From Hydrolagus colliei (taxonomy: Eukaryota), in NCBI GenBank assembly GCA_035084275.1, contig CM068754.1, positions 8,370,001 to 8,434,000 on the forward strand: a stretch of DNA of 64,000 nucleotides, in the 5' to 3' direction. Under the pieces are notes generated by a model. The model was not told the origin of the DNA, made no database searches, and worked only from the letters and a program-made list of their open reading frames with translations. The translations under genes were made by a program, and so were the position numbers. Shown here piece after piece: positions 47,659-62,614 of this stretch. Position 1 is the first letter of the stretch. The number at the start of each line of letters is the position of its first letter.

Positions 47659-47972
47659 GTGGAGTCCTGTAGCTCAGTGGTTAGAGCACTAGCCTTACAA
47701 GCGAGAGACTTGGATTCAATTCCAGGCAGTGCAAAACCTTGGCAAGTTCCCCTACTCTACATGCCTAATAATAATTCCTATATATTAAAAAAATTGGCTA
47801 TTTCAATCCACAACTGTTTGTGGACACTGCTGTGTACAATTGGCTGCTGCGTTTCGCCAACATATATAGTCAATTCACTTTACAGTATGTTTTGTGAAGC
47901 GCTTTGAGACATCTAGAAGAGGTGAAAAGCACTATATCAAATGTAAGGATTATTATTAGTATTAGTAGTAGT
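47659..47972 (+). mobile_element. Full-length tRNA-derived SINE
   Basis: GTGGAGTCCTGTAGCTCAGTGGTTAGAGCACTAGCCTTACAAGCGAGAG head, shared body, (ATT/AGT)n tail. Confidence 0.9.
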
Positions 47973-49158
47973 ATCTGCAGCAACTCAGTACATTTACACT
48001 GTGAAGTCTTTTGCTTATTGCAACCGCAAACCACACAGGAACTGAGGACTTCATGGGAAAAAGTAATTTCTAAAAGTAATTTGCTTTTGCTTGCACATCA
48101 GTGAATCAGGTATAGGACCCAGCAGCAGAAATGAAGGTGAAAGTGTGTGTTTATTAGGAGTTTTACAGTGTCTATGATTGTTTCAGCATTTGATTTCACT
48201 TTGTGCTGAAAGATTTACTGATGTGTAACTCTTGAAATGTTCATGCTTTGAGTTCATTATTGCCTAAATAAAGTATTTGTCAGCTAGCGTGTCAAAATAC
48301 TGACAGGCTAACAAATACCACGTGAGAGAGGCAACAGATAATCCAAAATGCAAAATCAGGTGAAACAGATCCTATAAGACTAAGACAGGGATTTGCCATT
48401 GCTCATTGTGTGGTATGCTGAAATCTCTACAACAGAAGGTGGCTGAATAACTCATTCACCAACACAGTAAATTACCAAAACTAGCAACCTCTTCATTCCC
48501 TGTTTGTAACAGTATTATAAACACATAACAATAGAAATCAACAATGTAATAGGCCTCTCGATCAGTGAGCAGATTAACAGGTGGAGATTTATCTTTAACA
48601 CATCCCACTCTTGGGCCGTCACATATTCATGGTATGGATGTTTCAAACAATCAGGATATCATGAGTCTCATTTGGAGGATTCCTTAACGGCATTTGCTTA
48701 ACAAACAAACCATTAGAATTCCCATCAACTGGTAGGAACTTGGCTGAGGAAGTTCACTGGTAATGGAGCAGATCTCCATGTTGTTGGTGTGATATTTTTC
48801 CAGTTACTGGAAGGAGCTTCCACTTTTCATGTTTCAGTTTTAATTTTTTAAATCCTCAAAGGCACTAAGATCACATACATTTATGCAACTTGTATTTAGG
48901 TTATATTTAGGTTGTATTTGATGCAAGGTATCGTCATGGCCTGTTATTATTCAATTAAATCCATCAAGTGAAAGTATCCAAACAATGCATTTGCCATAAA
49001 GATTCCTTATAACATTAACAAATTAAAGTTGCAGTATTTGTTTTCATGACTTTACATGTTTACAACGTTATAAGTACACAGATAGGGCAATAATATGTTT
49101 ATTTCACAGTCCAGATGTACAGCAGGAGGCACATATGAATGCACGCTTGTATTCATTT

Positions 49159-49541
49159 GTGGAGTCCTTGCAAGCGAAAGTATCTAGGTTTGATTCCCAA
49201 GTAAGGCGAAATGCTGGGCAAGTTTCCTTAGTCCACACACCTCTGTTTAACTAGCAGTAAGTAGGAACTTGGTTATTAGTCGATTGGTGGATCACATTTC
49301 CGGGGTTAATGCTCCATTCAAAAATAAACAAATGATTAAGTGAGTAAATTTATAAATGAATAATAATAATTGGGTCATTCAATTCATGATTGTTTGTGGG
49401 AAACTGCTGTGCACAATTTGCTGCTGCGTTTTGCCTGCAAAATATACTGTACAGTGAATTCACTTTTCAGTACATTCTGACAAGCGTTTTGAGACATCTC
49501 AAAGGCATAATAAGGCACTATCAAATGCAAGGATTATTATT
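49159..49541 (+). mobile_element. Longer SINE variant with extra central domain and deleted A box
   Basis: Same head start, body and tail as the short family plus ~90-100 bp of extra sequence from 49241. Confidence 0.75.
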
Positions 49542-50518
49542 AATATCATTATGCGATGAAAACATGCCTCAAAACATGACATAACAATATTACTTATATA
49601 AATCTGAGACCGTTTGTCTGGATGTACGAGTTAAATGTGTATTTGCCCAGTAATATCAGATTTTTACTTACTCTTTCATGCTCCACATCAAAAGGCAGCC
49701 TTTCTAAAATGGTACCCAGAGGATTAAAAACAAAAATTATTGATAAAAGAAAATCCTGCTGTTGCTTATTATAATTTGACTTAAATGTTAAACTTACACA
49801 CTTGGTGGGAATGTGGGCAATAATGCTTAAAACGTTTGTTGATGCCTCAAATCCATTTCAAAAAATGGTAAATTGCGGCACTCGCTCGGGTTAATAGAAA
49901 GTATAAGTTGCAGTAATGAGGCTATTCTGCAAAAATATTGATGTCATATAGAATTTTCTTTTCTCCGCAGCGAATGCTGTCACAGCATGAGCTGAATGGC
50001 ACAACATATGGCAGCAGAATTACCTTTATACCACCCAGGAGCAGGGTATATTTCATCCAACACCAGGGACTGCGCTGACAGGCAGTAGATTCCACGCTGC
50101 ACATGTTCAGCATCCCAAATTTCTGTTCTTTTGCTGCTCTTTCCCAAAGTAGAGGGTGGTGTGCACCAATAGATTCTTAAACCCCCGTCAACAATTTAAT
50201 AAGGAACACAAATCGCCCTGCCTGGGTAGATTACGATTGTGCATATGGCAAGCCATTCAGGAAAATTTGAAAGTGTGTTGTGTGTTAGCTTTTCTTTCTA
50301 ACTAACTACATGATTATAACAAAGATGTTAGACAATTCCAATAAAAAAAATCCAGAATTAGCCCTTTATGCCCATCTGAACTTTTGAACAAAATCAGTTC
50401 ATTTTAGGCAGAGATTAATCTGACCTCAGAATTCCCTTCTTTGAGAGTGATACGAATTACGTGCGCCTAACTCAGACTCCGGCTTCCAATTGAATGTTCT
50501 CCACCTATACATTGAGCG

Positions 50519-50690
50519 CTTAATAATAATCCACGCATTGGTATAGCGTTTTATCACCACACTGAGACATCTCAAAGCGCTTCACAATATTTATTGTAAA
50601 GAACAGTGACTGTGTATTTTGTCGGTGAACAGGCCAGTCAATTTGCACCCAGCAAAGTTCCATGAACAGCCATGAAGTGAATGATTAGTC
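50519..50690 (-). mobile_element. SINE 3' fragment
   Basis: Tail and body motifs (GAGACATCTCAAAGCGCTTCACA, TTTGCACCCAGCAA). Confidence 0.7.
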
Positions 50691-51312: not shown

Positions 51313-52544
51313 ATCTTCCCCTGAAAGGTGATCTATAGCAGAGGGTGAGTTTGAAGAGTATTTTAAACAGTTATTGCCCACATTGTGGCAATTGCAAATG
51401 GAGTATTAGTTGAAGTAACTACAGTACAGTATAAGGAATCAATCTTGAGTTGGTTTTCACAGCCCTGAGGAGGTCATTGAGCAATTTCACCACATTGGGA
51501 ATGGATAAACCATAGTGCAATACCCAAGGGCTCAGGAAGGGCAGGATATCTGTCAATAAGAGGAGACGGAGAAGTTAGAACAGAAATAACACAAGGAATC
51601 GGAATCAAACTTCTGATGTTTCACAAGGCCACACATTTTACTACATTGGCTTTGAGAACCGCAATTCACTTTGTGCCACAAATAGCAATAAATGAGTGGA
51701 ACAGAATTAAACAAATTAGCACATATTAAAGCCCACAAATTAATAATAATCCTTGCATTTGATATAGTACCTTATCACGACTTTGAGACATCTCATCGCG
51801 ATTCACAGAATATACTATAAAGTGAATGGGCTGTTTATTTTGAGGGCAAACCGTACTCTATTTTTAACTTGTGTTGTTCAAAGAACTGAGGTATTCAATG
51901 GGCATTTAACAGCAACACCTCTTTTTCAGTGGCTTATGTTTTTTGGTGAGATGGATGGAGAGACCGTGAATGTGGGCTTTAAAGAGAAGTAGAAAATGTC
52001 TGAACTCCTCGATGCAGTTTGCAGTCTTCAAAGCTGGCTGTCGATAGCCAGAGGTGATCTCATTGGATGCATATATTTCTTGTGCGATGGGAGTTAAAGC
52101 CCCACATAAGTGATCAGGCGTCAGCCCACCTTCTGAATTCATCAGTGATGCGGCCATAATTTAAAAGTTGATCTAATGCTTTTAGAGCTTCTGAAACAGT
52201 CTGCAGTGATACAGTGTGTTAATCCAGTTAGTGGCATTCACAATGCTTCCATTGCGAATCAGGAACTCTTCAAAAGTGTGATCCATAACAGCGAGCAAAG
52301 CTTGTTTTCATGGTTTATTCTGCAATAATTGTGCAATTACAATAATACTGGTATTATCAACAACTCACTTTGGACAATTAAGTTATTCTTTAACGCGCTG
52401 AATAAGCAGAAATTTCATGAAATTATTAAAACAAATGCTAGATAGATAACCCTGTGCATACATGCCTGCATTCCTCGTAGATCCGGTGGAGTAAAGACAT
52501 CACTTGGCTAGCACTCGTTTATAAGATCAGATGGCTGCAAGTTG

Positions 52545-53160: not shown

Positions 53161-54106
53161 TAGCATTTCATTGCATTACATTATTTGGTGCTTGTTTTAC
53201 CACCGCGCCAAATACTGTATTTCTTTTTCCCCTTGAAAGCACTGTCGTGTAACAATTTTCAATAGTAATATTCTTAGAAAGGTAAAATACCAACCAGAGG
53301 AAGACCTGCTGAGTTTTGCCATTCAGAGAGCCATACAGTAAAGAGTAGACGAGGGAGGGCAATGTCTGTACACCAGGGTCTGGTTTATGTTGATGGCTCA
53401 GAAAGCTTGTTTCTACATGTGCTTCTCTCTTCTTGTTGTTATGATGCACTGGAAAGAGATGTCTGAGTTGTCTTCTCCGGAGATGAAATGGGGGGCATTG
53501 TGTGGGGTGAAGAGAGTTCAGGAGGAACGTTTTACAAAACCGTTGTACCCTACAACACAAAAAAACATTGCTTGGCACCAAACTGGGCAAAGGACGGAGC
53601 TGGGAATGTGGGATTCTTTCCCAGAAGCTGTGCTTTAAGCAGAAATCATCAACCATTAAAGTGGAAACTTGATTCATACGTGAGCAAGAAGGGAAGACAT
53701 GGGGACAGGTGGAGACTCATTTGGAATACAAACAGCAGCATAGACTCGTTAGGCTGAATGATCTGTTTTGTTGCTTGATTTGTGCAACTAATAGCAATAA
53801 TAATCTTTGCATTATCACATCTTCTAGATGGCTCAAAGCACTTCACTGAATATACGGTAAACTGAATTGACTGCATATTGTCTGTAGCTTTGTTCACGTA
53901 ATCAAAACGGATTTAAGTGAAATGATGTGGAGAATCTCTTAGCAAAACCTTGCCAGCTTGGAGCAAATGGAACCTAACAGCTCGTGCACTCTCCAGCTCA
54001 TTGGAGCAAATGGTGGATGTATGTTTCAACATGCGGCTATGTTATTAGCCAGCATTTATCTGATGTATTATTTCATGGCAAAATTGAAGAAATGGGTGGC
54101 TATAAG

Positions 54107-54588
54107 CGTTAGAGAAAAAGGGAATTAAGATTATAATATTTAGGAAATGTACAGAACAAAAGGGGTTCAAACAGAAAGCTTCATGGTGCACGTGCAGAAA
54201 AGCATGTGAGACTAACAAAACTCGGAAAACAAGATAAAATCACACCCACAATTAACACCTGCTTAGACATCTGTGTCAGCAGTCTCCAACCCAGAGCATT
54301 GACTAACAAAGGGGGTCAATGTACAGATAAGAGATGTGTGAAGTGAATGTGATTGAAAGGAGGTAAATCCTCCCACATGGAATGTAAAGGATAAATACAG
54401 ATGTTACCTAAGTGACGGGGTCGTTAGCTTGGTGAAGCTTCGACCCTATCCCTGTACCAGACTGAGCGACTGGTTCAGAGGTAGATAATAAATGTACTTG
54501 GAGTAACTAAACGTTTTGAGGTATATTTATTGTATATGTGTATGAATGAGTTTTAGGAGAAGGACCTATAAACAAAATATACCTAACA
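54107..54588 (+). repeat. 5' LTR (482 bp)
   Basis: CGTTAG...CTAACA (terminal TG mutated to CG); TATA-like ATAAATA at 54391, AATAAA at 54487; ~7 substitutions and 1 indel vs the 3' LTR by eye. Confidence 0.96.
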
Positions 54589-54589
54589 T

Positions 54590-54607
54590 TGGGGGCTCGT
54601 CCGGGAT
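54590..54607 (+). promoter_or_regulatory. Primer binding site, tRNA-Pro
   Basis: TGGGGGCTCGTCCGGGAT, identical to the MLV tRNA-Pro PBS, 1 nt after the LTR end. Confidence 0.95.
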
Positions 54608-54754
54608 CTCAACATCTTACGCCTTAGGGTGAGTATAGTCAGGTCAGAGGGAATCGGACACCGAGGATCGAGAAGGATCTAGAAGTCGGTACGTAGAGGT
54701 CGAGACTGATTCACCGAGGAAAGGGTAAGTGACGAGATCATTTGAATCTTAAAG

Positions 54755-56173
54755 ATGGGATGTGTAGGTAGTAAAGGGGGCTGGTGTTGTAGTTGTTGTA
54801 AGAAAGAACCCCGTGAACCAATTAGTCGAAATGGAAAGGCTATGAACAAGGTAGTTCAGGGAAGCGGGGATTGGGAAAGTATGTGGAAATGTAAATTTGG
54901 ATTTGATGGGCGACTAAAGCCAGAAAGCACAAAATAATTATTGGACAGAATAAAAGAGAAGAGTGGAGATAATATTAAAAAGCAAAAAAAATACCATTAC
55001 GGTGAGGCACAGGTATGGCATTTAAGAGCTACAGGAAACCGACGATTGGGCGAACTAACGGAGGACAAAACAAAGATATTAGCCTATACAGAAAAAGAGG
55101 ATTTGGAAACCCCAGCCACTCGGCGCCAAGAAATCCCCGTTGCCCCACCGCCGTATCGGTCAGCACAACCCACGGCACCTTTAAATCACGCTTATGGTCC
55201 TAGGACACCTAAGAATGCTGACCAATACACCAGGTGGCTCCATAGTAATTATCAAAACAAACCCACACCCCCTAGTTCTCCTTTAAGTCAACTTAAGGAA
55301 GCAGATGAGAGAAAAGAAGGAAATTTTCCAATGATAGAAGTAGCAAATGGACAGGGGAATACACAGTATGTATATAGGGCTTGGGGAATGGAGGATGTAA
55401 AACGGGCAATGGTCGCTTGTCCTCACCCTAATCAAGGGGGAAACGAGTTTCAGGATTTTATGTATCAGACACTGGCAAGTTATAGGTTAAACAGCCTAGA
55501 AACAGAACAATGTATAAGAGAGGTTGTGCGCCAAGAATGGTGTCAAGTGGGAGGAAATTGGACAGCACTAAATAACGAGGGAGCGCCGAGACTGTATGTC
55601 CAGCCACCGGCAGCGGAAAACCGTCCTCAACATGAGTATTGGGGACCACTGGATCGATTGATGGGTAGAATAGCCGTATTTTATAGGGCGCGGTGCAATT
55701 ATTCCGCAATAATAGATTGTGTTCAAGCTAAGGATGAAACGAGTATGCAATACTATACACGACTACGGAGGGTATTTAATTCCAATAGTGGAATTGAACC
55801 ACCACAGCCGCATGATGATAACGGAGTGTGGGCACAGCAGATTAAGAATGCGTTCTTAGCTGGAATGGTACCTCACATTTCAAAATTGGTAAAACAGCAT
55901 TTAATAATGTGGAGTACGGGGCCACTCCAGCCAGTATTGGACTATGCCATCCACTTTGAGCGGATAACTAGGGAGGAGAAGAGAAATAACAAACACAGTG
56001 AGGGGTTTGTAGCGCAAGAAATGAACAAGAAACCATGGCAGGGTAATAAGGGGGAAAGGAAAGGGAAGCCCAGAAATGACAATGGGTGGGAGTGTTATAC
56101 CTGTGGGGAAATGGGACACTGGGCGAGAGACTGTCCAAACCGATATAGGTCCCAGAAACCAAAAGAGGAATGA
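54755..56173 (+). pseudogene. gag: Retroviral Gag (one in-frame TAA at 54935-54937)
   Basis: ORFs 54755 and 54941 share a frame; MGxxxS myristoylation motif, PPPY and PTAP late domains, MHR-like CVQAKDETSMQYYTRL, zinc knuckle CYTCGEMGHWARDC. Confidence 0.93.
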
Positions 56174-59100
56174 GAGGAGGAGGCATTGGATGCCCTGCCC
56201 ACTGCTCTATGGTCCCAGGGATCAGCCGATGTAGGGCTCATAAAAGGAGTCGAACCTATTAAAATTATACCAAAAGGGACACACCGCCCATACCAACGGC
56301 AGTATTCCATAAAACCAGAGGCCATTGAAGGAATTAAACCAATAATCAAAGAACTTAAGGAAAAAGGTATTATAATAAACTGTCCTGATTCCCCATGCAA
56401 CACCCCTCTACTTCCGGTAAAAAAGATTGCACCATCACAAGGGTGGCGATTAGTACAGGATTTACAAGCAGTAAATAAAGCAGTGATCCCCCGAACCCCA
56501 GTAGTACCAGATCCTAATACCTTGTTGAATGAATTACGAACAGATGCAGCTTGGTTCACTGTGATTGATTTAGCGAATGCTTTCTTCTCCATCCCCGTGG
56601 ATAAGGCCTCCCAATTTTGGTTCGCTTTCACGTTTTTGGGAAGAAAATATACGTACACCAGATGCCCACAGGGATTCATTGAATCCCCAGCCATATTCTC
56701 ACAATATATGGAAAGTAATCTGGCAAAGTTTGAACCTCCGGGAGGAAGTCAAATCCTGTTATACGTAGACGACATACTAATATGCTCTCCATCAAAGGAA
56801 ATTTGTCACCAGGATTCACTAGCTTGCCTATAATTTTTAGGAGAATGGGGCCATAAAGTAAGCCGAAATAAATTACAATACTGTTCACCTGTGGTCAAGT
56901 ATCTAGGCCATACAATCTCTAGAGAAGGAAAATCCTTACTAAAAGATAGAAAAATAGTAATAATGCAGGCCCCTCGGCCTGAAACTAAACAGCAGATGAT
57001 GTCGTTTTTAGGAATGACCAACTTCTGCCGAGCATGGATTTCCTCTTATGCGGAACTAACTCAGCCCTTGTTAGGGCTGATCTATGATACCCCTATGAAG
57101 GCACAAGATAAAATTAATTGGAATCCGGAGACCATAAAGGCATTCGAAATCATAAAAACCATCTTATCCGGAGCAGAGACGTTGGCGCATCCTGACCCCA
57201 CTAAACCATATACTCAAACAGTTTGCGTTAAAAATGGGTTTATGGCATCTGTCCTATTACAACCGTTTGGATCACGAATGCGGCCGGTTGCTTATTACTC
57301 GCACCGGTTGGATCCAGTCGCTCGGGGACTTCCCTGTTGTTTGCAGGCGGTCGAAGCAGTAGCACTGGCTGTTCGTGCCTCATTGCCCTTGGTATTATAC
57401 CAACCATTAATATTAGTCCCACACGCGGTTTCGAGCTTGCTGCTCCAAACTAAACATGCTTTCCTATCACCAGCGCGCCAACTATCATGTATAGCCACCT
57501 TGCTGACCTGTCCAAACTTAATTATTGAACGATGTACAGTCCTGAATCCAGCAACTTTGCTACCAGTGCCCTCTGAAGGTAGCCCGCATGACTGCCTAAC
57601 AAAAACCTCACAGTCAGTTGCGGCCCGAGTGGATTTGGCTGACACAAGCTTTGAAAACGCAGAAGTAACATATTTTGTGGATGGCTCGTGTAAAAAAGAT
57701 GCGCTGGGCCATTCCCAAAGCAGTTATGCTGTATGCACCCAGAGTACGGTGATTGAAGCGGCCAGGCTCCCAGCAGGATACTCGGCACAAATGGCTGAAC
57801 TTGTGGCGCTCACTCGAGCCTGCGCATTAGGACAAGGAAAAATTGTTAATATATATACAGATTTGCAATACGCCCACTCTACATGCCACGTATTTGCAGG
57901 ACAATGGCGAAACCGAGGCATGGTTACCTCCACAGGAAAGCCAATCTCCCATGCAGATTTAATTTTAAACCTAATTGATGCATTACAACTTCCGAAACAA
58001 TTGGCAACACTTAAATGTACTGCCCATACCTCTGCAAAGGACCCTGTGTCAAAAGGAAATGCCTTTGCAGATAAAACTGCCCAGGCAGTGCCATTCGCAG
58101 AAATACTCGTGTTGGAAACGCCGCCTTCTATTAATATAACAATGATTAAAACTATGCAGGATGAGGCAAGCACGCTTGAAAAACGTGCATGGCATAACAT
58201 GGGATGCACTAAAAAACCCTCGGAAATCTGGGTAGGGGCTACAGGATTACCTGTGTTGCCCCGATCATTGTTTCCTATTGCGGCAAAGTTGAGCCATGGC
58301 AAATGCCATGTCTCAAAAGGAGGGATGAGGACAATGATAGAGCAACAGTATACAACGTTCGGACTAACAATTTATCTACAAAAATTTTGTAGACAATGTA
58401 TCACTTGTCTCCGTAATAATCCACAAGGGCAAGCAAAATGCAAACAAGGGCAATTCCCGTCGGCAAATGAACCTTTTTCACATTGGATGATGGATTTTAT
58501 CCACCTAAACGTTTGTGAAGGAAAAAAATATTGCCTGGTTATGGTATGTCCTTTTTCTGGATGGGTGGAAGCATTTCCTACAGCCCATATAGACGCCTTG
58601 ACAGTCGCAAAAATATTGTGTAGATAAATAATACCACGATGGGGTATTCCGCGAGTCCTATATAGCGATAATGGACCCGAGTTTAAAAATGAGGTATTAA
58701 AACAGGTGGGCACACAATTGGGAATTATGTTAAAGAAGCATTGTGCATACCACCCCAAATCAGCGGGAACAGTTGAGTGACATAACGGTACTCTTAAAAA
58801 TAAGATAAAGAAAGCTATGGAAACAACTGGGAAAGGGTGGGTAGCTTGCCTGCCCCTGGCCCTGACTAGCATGAGAATCATGCCTGGGAGTAAGAAGCTA
58901 TCCCCATATGAGATAGTGATGGGGAGGGCTTATTATATGCCCCAATTGGGAGAGCGCACAATGTTAAAGGAAGCAGGACTGGCAGATTATATGTGAAAAT
59001 TGTTCGAAAATAAAACTGCCATGCGAAACGTATTACCTCCGCAGATTACGGGTGAGAGTACCGAGCCATGCCCACTACAACCGGGAGATTGGACTCTAGT

Positions 59101-59245
59101 GAAGGACATTAAGCGAAAACACTGGCATCAACCTAAGTGGATTGGACAGTACCAAGTGTTATTGACCACACCAACAGCGATAACAATTGCAGAACGAAAC
59201 ACCTGGGTACACGTTAACCACTGTAAGAAGACACCTTCGCCGTAA
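56174..59245 (+). pseudogene. pol: Retroviral Pol: RT, RNase H, integrase (no protease); in-frame stops at 56831, 58625, 58778, 58994
   Basis: RLVQDLQAVN, DLANAFFSIP, PQGF, YVDD; RNase H FVDGS/SAQMAELVAL/IYTD/GNAFAD; IN HHCC, MDFI, SDNG, TVE and a GPY/F-like WIGQYQVLLTT; one frame, continuous with gag. Confidence 0.95.
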
Positions 59246-59263
59246 GACGGACAACTATCAAGC

Positions 59264-59481
59264 ATGGCATGGCTATGGTTCCTCATCTTTGGACTATACA
59301 ATGGACTGATAAGTGGAACAGGGGAAAATACGTTTCTAATGGCTGTCCATAAATTGGCGCAGCGGGCTGATGACAGTAGGTGTTGGGTGTGTATCCAAAC
59401 ACCCCACAGCTATTAGCAATGACCGAAAACGATGGACTGGAGGATGATGAGGACACAGATGACTACTATTCTGACCCATAA
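59264..59481 (+). pseudogene. env: env remnant (signal peptide and CWVC motif joined to an acidic C-terminal stub)
   Basis: MAWLWFLIFGLYNGLISGTGENTFLMAVHKLAQRADDSRCWVCIQTPHSY* (59264-59416); in another frame QLLAMTENDGLEDDEDTDDYYSDP* (to 59481). Confidence 0.75.
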
Positions 59482-59591
59482 GATTGCAGGGTCATTTTGC
59501 CGTCTATGAGGGCGTTCTTTTTCAACTGTTAAAACAACAGCAAAAGGGGCCTGAGAACAGGGCAGCTGACGAAAGGATTTATAAATATTAT

Positions 59592-59603
59592 AAAAGGAGG
59601 GAA
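59592..59603 (+). promoter_or_regulatory. Polypurine tract
   Basis: AAAAGGAGGGAA immediately before the 3' LTR TG. Confidence 0.9.
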
Positions 59604-60086
59604 TGTTAGAGAAAAAGGGAATTAAGATTATAATATTTAGGAAATGTACAGAACAAAAGGGGTTCAAACAGAAAGCTTAATGGTGCACGTGCAGAAAAGC
59701 ATGTGAGACTAACAAAACTCGGAAAACAAGATAAAATCACACCCACAATTAACACCTGCTTAGTCCATCTGTGTCAGCAGTCTCAAACCCAGAGCATTGA
59801 CTAACAAAGGGGGTCAATGTACAGATAAGAGATGTGTGAAGTGAATGTGATTGAAAGGAGGTAAATCCTCCCACATGAAATGTAAAGGATAAATACAGAT
59901 GTTACCTAAGTGACGGAGTCGTTAGCTTGGTGAAGCTTCGACCCTATCCCTGTACCAGACTGAGCGACTGGTTCAGAGATAGATAATAAATGTACTTGGA
60001 GTAACTAAACGTTTTGAGGTATATTTATTGTATATGTGTATGAATGAGTTTTAGGAGAAGGACCTATAAACAAAATATACCTAACA
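59604..60086 (+). repeat. 3' LTR (483 bp)
   Basis: TGTTAG...CTAACA inverted termini; AATAAA at 59985. Confidence 0.96.
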
Positions 60087-61027
60087 ATAAGGTATGTGCT
60101 TGTCAATCTGTTTCGCTGAAGGAGGATTGCAAACCCATTGATTCAAAGGATGTTAATAGGCACTGTAGAGATGATTAACGTGGTCTGTGTTTTACAAACG
60201 AAGAACATGCCCTGACATTGACATTGATATTCCACCAATGTGGGAAATGAATGCACATACGGGAAGAATTGCAATTTTTTTTAATATGCCCTGAATATCT
60301 CACATTAGTTCCCTGTGGCAGTATTCTTCCGTAGAACTCCCCTATGGAATGTAGTGTCATGTCCGTGCTATGCTGTGGCTGGCACTGCACCTAATGAGAA
60401 CACTTTGTGCTAAAATGATTTCAGAGTCTCTGGAGATTCCAGTAGGCATAGTATCTGGGACCATCTGACGGTGTTTTAATGGGTTACAGAGACAGTTCAT
60501 CAGAAATGCGTTACATGGATCTCTCTCAAACACTGTGTGACCAATTCAAAAAAGACAATTCATTTCCGCTAAACTGGGTAAAGGGCAACACCGCATAATA
60601 TATATATTTTTAAAAACTACTGTAATCCCACCAAAAATACTCCATATGAAGAAATTGACATTTTTCACAGAAACGGGCATTTATTAGGTGCTTGGATTAT
60701 TCTTGATATGATCTGCAGTTTTTATGAGATTCCCTTGAGGTCACAGCAGAATGATTGGTTGAGTATTGCTGATCTATTACACTCATTTCGTTTTCAGAGT
60801 TTAAAATTCTGGAGCTGTGAAGCGTAAGATTTTGTATCAAGGCTGCAGTTAAACAGGTGACTTCATTTCCAAATGATTTGAACCAGAAACCAAGACTCAT
60901 TGCATTGTGGCCAGGATATAATTTGTGGTACACAAACTGATTTGGAGAATCTCTCTGTGGAAACCTGAAGAAGGTAGGTCACTTTCAGTTCAGATTTATC
61001 TTCAACCTGTTCAGGATTATCTTCATC

Positions 61028-61178
61028 ACTGCTGTGCGCAATTGGCTGCTGCGTTTTGCTCACCCAATACACAGTCAATTCACTTTACAATATATTCTGT
61101 GAAGCACTTGGAGACGTTTTGAAGATGTGATATGGTGCTGTATCAAACGCAAGGATTATTATGATTATTATTATTATT
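61028..61178 (+). mobile_element. SINE 3' half
   Basis: CTGCTGTGCGCAATTGGCTGCTGCG...GAAGCACTTGGAGACG...(ATT)n. Confidence 0.82.
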
Positions 61179-62614
61179 AACTGGAACCGACATGATTGTA
61201 CGATCTTAATAGAGATCATATCCTCATAACACTGCTCACATTAGACAACAGGTCCGTGATCAGTGTTCCAATACTCCCAGGATTGGAGACTAGATTTGTG
61301 TTCCTCTCTCATTTTCTCATCTAGCAGCATGACTGCTTCATTCCACCATTCTTGGCAATGCTAAAAACAGAAACTATTACCAGTTTCACTGCTGTGACAA
61401 AAAGACTCGTTTCCACTGATAACTGCTGTTGCATTTGGATTTGAGCAACATTGAAAGAAATAGCCATGAAGGCTCATCGATGTAATCACAGACATAGAAG
61501 AATTACTGGACACCGGCGGCAGGTGAGATGAAGACGATAGGCATTGCATTTACAAAGGACAATACACAATGTGTTCAGTCCAATTCCACAAGTAATTTGG
61601 AGCTTCACTTGTGGCAAGCACACAATGATTTAACTTGGAAAACTGAATGGTAGGAGGGCAGCCAGTAAGCACTGCCAAGACACTCCCTGATGGCAAACCA
61701 AATTGAAAGCAATTCAACCTAGGCCACTCATATGGAACCCACCAGCGGTGGTTCCTGGGCAGCTTAGGCAGACAGAGAGAGAGGGGGAGGGCGTAGCAGC
61801 CCTGGGACATGCTGCTTATTTGTCTTTGGTGTGCAATGAAAAAGAAACACATTTTACAACTATAGTAAATAGTTGAAGTATAACTTAATTCAAAGAGTTA
61901 CTGCTTCAGTGTTACCACTGATAATCAGTACTTTATAGCTCTTTTGATGACACTTAAAGTCTATTATAAGAACAGAATTAATATAAAATAATATAAGGAT
62001 GTGTACTTCCAGTAAATGACAACACAGATTAACCTCGACAAGAATGTCCCCTTACATAGTACCTTTCATGTCAAGGGGAAGCTCAACAAGTTATAATATA
62101 TATATAATCCTCGCATTTGATATAACACCTTATCACATCTTCGTTATGTCTCAAAACCCTTCACAGTGTCAAGTGTAAAGGGCATTCATTGTATATTTTG
62201 TCAAGCTTCAAACAATTGGCTGAGTGCCAAGTAAAAGAGAGGGTAGTGGAGATGCGGAAGCAATGCCTGGGTAAGACGGGAAGAACCAACATTTCAGTCA
62301 AAAGGATAGATGGAAATGTGCTCATGCATTAATTTTCAGGCAACATTGACTGGCTCAGAGAATGTTTCACGGCTGTAACCTGCTGAATAGGTTGATGAAC
62401 TTACTAACTAAAGAGCATAAGAGAGGACTGGAACCTAATAATATTCTCAGGCAGCTTCATATATATTCTTGTTACCACTTCCAAAAGTCCATTTGAGTTT
62501 TGCCAACGCCCTTAATCTCCGTTACCATCTGTAAAGATGGTAAGCCTTTCCTGATTGTAATTCTTTTAAGTTTCCTGAAAGTGTCCAGAATTGTCAGCAT
62601 GGTATATAATAAAA

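Follow-up and report, generated by a model that had tools for sequence, protein, structure and literature searches.

The provirus contained in a 64,000-nucleotide stretch of the Hydrolagus colliei genome (hereafter the window) is, at a probability that we put at about 0.9, a dead class I provirus whose protease module was lost in a one-off deletion. By itself the copy is unremarkable, being one of many broken ones, and the layout of its relatives matters more. The module missing from the window is bounded in many of them by two in-frame UGA codons, the second of which is probably read through, giving a gag-UGA-pro-UGA-pol arrangement with double readthrough.

Architecture of the provirus

The element has paired LTRs with target-site duplications, a primer-binding site (presumably tRNA-Pro-like) and the order gag-pol-env, env being present as a remnant only (Table 1). 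Pol shares the frame of gag, from which it is separated by a stop after a single CCHC knuckle (56093-56134; zf-CCHC E 9.5e-9), and includes an MLV-type integrase C-terminal domain (MLVIN_C E 6.8e-12). From its domain order and from fold hits, the element is classed as a class I (gamma/epsilon-like) ERV. Five sister copies are flanked by 5-base target-site duplications that differ from the ATAAG of the window provirus. An abundant short interspersed repeat is also dispersed through the window, with copies on either strand (47822-47977, 49399-49561, 50525-50621, 51741-51853, 53812-53890, 61024-61183 and 62104-62208).

Table 1. Features of the provirus, in window coordinates.
Feature	Position	Strand	Remarks
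Provirus, whole	54107-60086	+	5.98 kb, Hydrolagus colliei window
5′ target-site duplication ATAAG	54102-54106	+	Repeated downstream of the 3′ LTR
5′ LTR, 482 bp	54107-54588	+	Against the 3′ LTR: 7 mismatches and 1 indel
Primer-binding site	54590-54607	+	Directly 3′ of the 5′ LTR
gag	54755-56173	+	Met-Gly start, CCHC knuckle, terminal TGA 56171-56173
Deletion junction, 7-base microhomology AGGAGGA	56175-56181	+	963 bp (321 codons) absent relative to sisters
pol remainder: RT, tether, RNase H, integrase	56174-59245	+	Pfam RVT_1, RNase_H, rve, MLVIN_C
env remnant	59266-59590	+	~1.04 kb absent at 59411 relative to sister L011
3′ LTR, 483 bp	59604-60086	+	Purine-rich tract just upstream
3′ target-site duplication ATAAG	60087-60091	+	Matches the 5′ copy

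An in-frame deletion between gag and reverse transcriptase

The initial annotation had described a gag stop running in frame directly into reverse transcriptase (RT), with no protease between nucleocapsid and RT, and both observations hold. Translation together with an RVT_1 match places the RT in the same frame directly after the terminal KPKEE-TGA of gag; past the TGA this frame reads EEEALDALPTALWSQG and then enters the RT (RVT_1 E 4e-22). No match to the protease of a sister copy was returned by tblastn across window positions 54001-60200, and of the four D[TS]G triplets that six-frame translation yields, all are off-frame or antisense.

Searching the same genome with positions 56050-56350 returned five candidates, all of which were scored, comprising the window itself and two sisters split around the junction. 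Two sister copies of 98-99% identity to the window (L006 and L007) carry 963 extra bases, or 321 codons, at this point, and ten loci in all retain the intervening segment. It codes for an aspartyl protease (RVP E 7e-14) followed by a CNPase-like 2H domain, and a second stop has its site there too. What the sisters hold in excess thus bears out the proposal that the protease region was lost in frame, leaving the RT behind a genuine gag stop. The GA-rich junction that had been taken as the mark of a template switch proves to be a 7-base microhomology, AGGAGGA, present at both ends of the sisters' 963-base segment and surviving once in the window. Both 7-mers lie in Glu codons and in the same phase, and the in-frame outcome of the deletion therefore needs no selection.

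The TGA that closes gag in the window is read as the natural gag stop because, of the 26 relatives in which the site is retained, 22 from three subfamilies have TGA there; the codons of the remaining four are GGA, TGG, TGT and TGT. The first two of these belong to L006 and L007, respectively, both of which are without most of the RT, and TGT is found in L032 and L034 of subfamily C. The TGG of L007 had raised the idea that the window TGA is a decayed Trp codon, which was rejected on the same count of relatives.

One template switch, or one slip during repair, likely removed the 963 bases between the two copies of the 7-base repeat. This may have been a reverse-transcriptase template switch before integration or a microhomology-mediated deletion after it, two routes that are not separable here; microhomology template-switch deletions are part of general ERV decay. 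The deletion begins within 8 bases of the gag stop, and any 3′ stimulator of readthrough would therefore have been lost with the segment.

One deleted copy rather than a protease-less lineage

Beyond the junction itself, the initial annotation had proposed, should many copies share it, a lineage in which RT, RNase H and integrase are retained while the protease is borrowed from a helper. The preserved frame and the genuine gag stop would fit such a lineage; the same-phase microhomology, however, already accounts for the in-frame result, and the junction is confined to the window locus within the assembly, a 40-base pattern spanning it (≤2 mismatches) having a single match in 1.0 Gb; a junction unique to this locus is the outcome that the initial annotation had named as refuting its proposal. 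When the RT start was used as a protein query and the best 150 of 152 candidates were scored, 29 loci reached E 1e-20 or better, and within that scope the protease is fully covered in 28 of the 28 loci other than the window (middle domain coverage 85-100%); in another genome search the best 40 of 151 candidates were scored.

The reading frames of the window copy likewise argue against a maintained lineage. Gag has one premature stop (54935-54937), and pol has four (at 56831, 58625, 58778 and 58994), each private to the window in that its closest sister, L016 (G000:C1:69898653-69902293), has sense codons at all four positions. Over 925 codons the window and L016 differ by 5 synonymous and 21 non-synonymous changes (dN/dS 1.25), from which we take the window pol to have decayed neutrally. 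The close sisters have internal deletions peculiar to each; L016 has its env deletion in common with the window. L016 is also the one possible second carrier of the junction, since it has lost the sequence 5′ of window-equivalent position 56438: it is cut there by another repeat, and no 5′ half was found.

Non-autonomous deleted derivatives do spread in this genome, and this too could be said for a helper-dependent lineage. A joint of window-equivalent 57730-58543 to 59044 is common to seven of the fetched loci (L008, L009, L010, L011, L029, L030 and L031), and because these seven non-autonomous loci share one deletion joint, trans-complementation occurs in the genome. They form a sub-lineage without most of gag and without all of the RT, retaining an RNase H/integrase fragment; in L030 and L031 this fragment sits between more divergent LTRs, which suggests recombination between subfamilies. 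Set against the single occurrence of the window junction, the protease kept by every relative in the RT-start set and the private stops of pol, a protease-less lineage is nonetheless highly improbable, and we retain the reading of a single dead provirus.

An assembly artefact, in which 963 bases collapsed at a short repeat, would dispose of the junction altogether, and it could draw on the lack of any junction-spanning record among the longest contigs listed. Contigs of runs X1 and X4 (two samples from two studies, one of which may be the source animal) nevertheless pass from the unique 5′ flank into the LTR; further on, they break off at 56170 or 56169 and resume exactly at 56175 with no extra letters; those of runs X6 and X10 continue past 56181 into other sequence. 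A contig break at 56169/56170 and 56175 is the pattern expected if joined and unjoined forms are both present in the reads. On this indirect evidence the junction is probably real sequence, and a collapse during assembly has very little to recommend it. The separate 58543/59044 joint is also found in contigs of all four runs examined.

A second in-frame stop in related copies

The segment absent from the window holds, in many relatives, a further stop. An in-frame TGA-C stands at the border between the 2H domain and the RT in 20 of 20 subfamily C loci (L026, L027 and L032-L049; for example at L039:2974), a count that may include haplotype duplicates, some of the loci being on short contigs; its contexts are TGA-CTA in 15, TGA-CTG in three and TGA-CGA in two. 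L006, a sister in the window's own subfamily, also has a TGA-C here (L006:5126). The codon is otherwise TGC in L007 and GGA in six of eight subfamily B loci, one of the remaining two being without the codon and the other without the region. Four subfamily C loci (L036, L037, L048 and L049) have the end of gag and the knuckle replaced by unrelated open-looking sequence, joined just before the protease.

Young subfamily C copies, with LTRs 99.5-99.9% alike, present three successive open reading frames in the same frame, of ~507, 329 and 1036 codons. Between two stop-carrying subgroups of subfamily C, RT-integrase has a dN/dS of 0.10-0.13 at dS 0.20-0.25 (three pairs), indicating that pol has been selected behind the second stop. 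The first 110 codons behind this stop differ by 18-19 synonymous and 2-3 non-synonymous codon changes. In 15 of 17 loci no Met occurs past the stop until codon 53, which lies beyond the conserved RT start. The site accordingly combines the features of type II (UGA-C) readthrough, namely a C after the UGA, conservation, a downstream frame identical to the upstream one, and a pol under purifying selection.

RNA structure was assessed 3′ of both stops. Behind the second stop no significant structure was found in L006 (z -1.08) or L039 (z -0.94); folding 3′ of the first stop gave z scores of -2.64, -1.48 and -0.88. A weakly supported hairpin candidate behind the first stop, considered as a possible stimulator of readthrough and sited in the segment deleted from the window copy, has 79% of cells paired and one compensatory pair in a pair count that 21 of 500 shuffles equalled or exceeded.

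The second-stop site can also be traced among distant homologues. A profile search of 1.84 billion representatives gave 115 proteins; 4 of the 115 were dropped as multi-stretch matches and 33 of the remaining 111 as not reaching profile position 150, leaving 78. Of these homologues that reach the end of the domain, 55 terminate within 12 residues of the second-stop site, 15 extend more than 30 residues past it and eight fall in between, the end-points being those of predicted proteins from different 50%-identity clusters, for which a stop, a frameshift and a contig end are not told apart. Contig ends are argued against by the tight clustering of the end-points. Two of ten clusters examined are named: one is a blenny protein terminating at the site, the other pufferfish proteins extending into the RT. 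Neither a word-indexed search nor a metagenome scan returned longer homologues.

The deleted middle domain

The domain lying between protease and RT in the sisters spans ~170 residues and has two H-x-T/S motifs. Across 74 aligned rows the first motif has its His in 65 and its Thr in 65, the second its His in 70 and its Ser in 65. Sequence comparison returned no Pfam match for the domain and nothing significant in a PDB sequence search (best E 0.31). A structure model built from 74 natural sequences reached a pLDDT of 93.8, against 38 for a model from four sequences only, and matched mouse CNPase at E 5.2e-8 with a TM score of 0.71. An Atlas feature search pointed to a 2H family at 0.96, with a recognition value of 2185 that lies under its 2300 guide. 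Structural modelling and motifs together lead us to describe the deleted domain as a predicted CNPase-like 2H phosphoesterase.

The top fold match of the 2H model is Q2VF30, which we take to be the SSSV polyprotein. Walleye epidermal hyperplasia virus 1 (E 2.8e-8) and walleye dermal sarcoma virus (E 2.3e-6) also match the fold, in each case through the predicted Env polyprotein.

Readthrough of the second stop and its alternatives

We consider it probable that the second UGA of the relatives is read through. The products of the family would then be Gag, Gag-PR-2H and Gag-PR-2H-RT-IN, each less abundant than the one before, through two successive UGA-C readthroughs; protease and CNPase-like phosphoesterase would form a pro unit of their own, more abundant than the RT, and the window copy would be a fossil that had dropped exactly the stop-bounded PR-2H unit. 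The second stop does not appear to be universal in the family, to judge from the GGA of subfamily B, the TGC of L007 and the 15 distant homologues that seem to run on. Gag-PR-2H fusions without an RT may reflect either chance decay or selection.

The sense codons of subfamily B and L007 could instead mean that the second TGA is no recoding site but a disabling mutation of a master copy, spread in trans as other defective derivatives in this genome have been. Such a mutation would sit uneasily with two subfamily C subgroups that both carry the stop while their RT-integrase has diverged under purifying selection, and with its recurrence in L006, a member of a far more distant subfamily. The codon is moreover followed by C in every context, and the homologues ending at the site (55 of 78) come from different 50%-identity clusters; we hold a disabling mutation to be decidedly unlikely.

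A stronger contender, if still an unlikely one, is that the second stop does terminate translation and that pol is made separately, through a spliced RNA of its own or by starting internally, on the pattern of Pol in foamy viruses. An arrangement of that kind would explain a conserved stop followed by a selected pol equally well; the lack of strong RNA structure behind the second stop is compatible with it. Against this, pol and pro occupy the same frame, which in subfamily B is joined by a sense codon, and 52 codons without a Met follow the second stop. The UGA-C context is shared with the first stop of subfamily C, and it recurs in the alphavirus readthrough sites described in the accessible part of PMC13517186. 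Readthrough of the second UGA therefore remains our preferred account. That double UGA readthrough in widespread fish-type class I retroviruses is both real and undescribed is a narrower claim, to which we give slightly better than even odds.

Implications and comparison with known systems

If the conserved second UGA is what it appears to be, it adds a recoding layout to the retroviruses and accounts for the truncation of the family's pol genes behind the 2H domain by automatic gene callers. A greater need of the virus for its CNPase-like enzyme than for RT would also be suggested, a lead on the role of the captured enzyme. The young, low-divergence copies are natural short cassettes for reporter work.

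The window copy itself resembles internally deleted defective proviruses in its single occurrence, the short direct repeat at its junction, the stops in gag and pol and the env deletion; it differs from them in nothing of substance, the deletion merely happening to be in frame. The family to which it belongs looks most like the CNPase-carrying, UGA-readthrough fish retroviruses, a resemblance by analogy that leaves membership at genus level tentative. CNPase-like cargo has already been reported in epsilon-like fish ERVs (PMC4977317, citing Basta et al. 2009), which are likewise fish-type class I elements with a 2′,3′-cyclic nucleotide phosphodiesterase-like domain; the accessible part of that paper mentions no stop between this domain and the RT, whereas in many copies of the family described here two TGA stops bound the module.

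A UGA at the gag-pro junction is also known, from SSSV, ZFERV and a frog ERV (PMC13517186). According to the part of that source available, these viruses share with the present family a UGA rather than a UAG after the knuckle and a pro-pol in the gag frame, but one readthrough site is listed for each and none before the RT, whereas the present family probably has two. We found no description in the literature of two readthrough stops in one retrovirus, although Basta 2009, Paul 2006 and Shen 2004 may mention one; the double-stop layout is likely a new variant of retroviral recoding.

The nearest functional parallel may be offered by the beta- and deltaretroviruses, in which pro has a separate frame and two frameshifts are used to make three nested products. 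By analogy with their gag-pro-pol arrangement, a single RNA of the family would yield three such products, and pro would be a unit of its own. The means differ: beta- and deltaretroviruses reach gag-pro-pol by frameshifting (as described in the accessible part of PMC13517186), whereas the family described here has three open reading frames in a single frame, with UGA codons between them.
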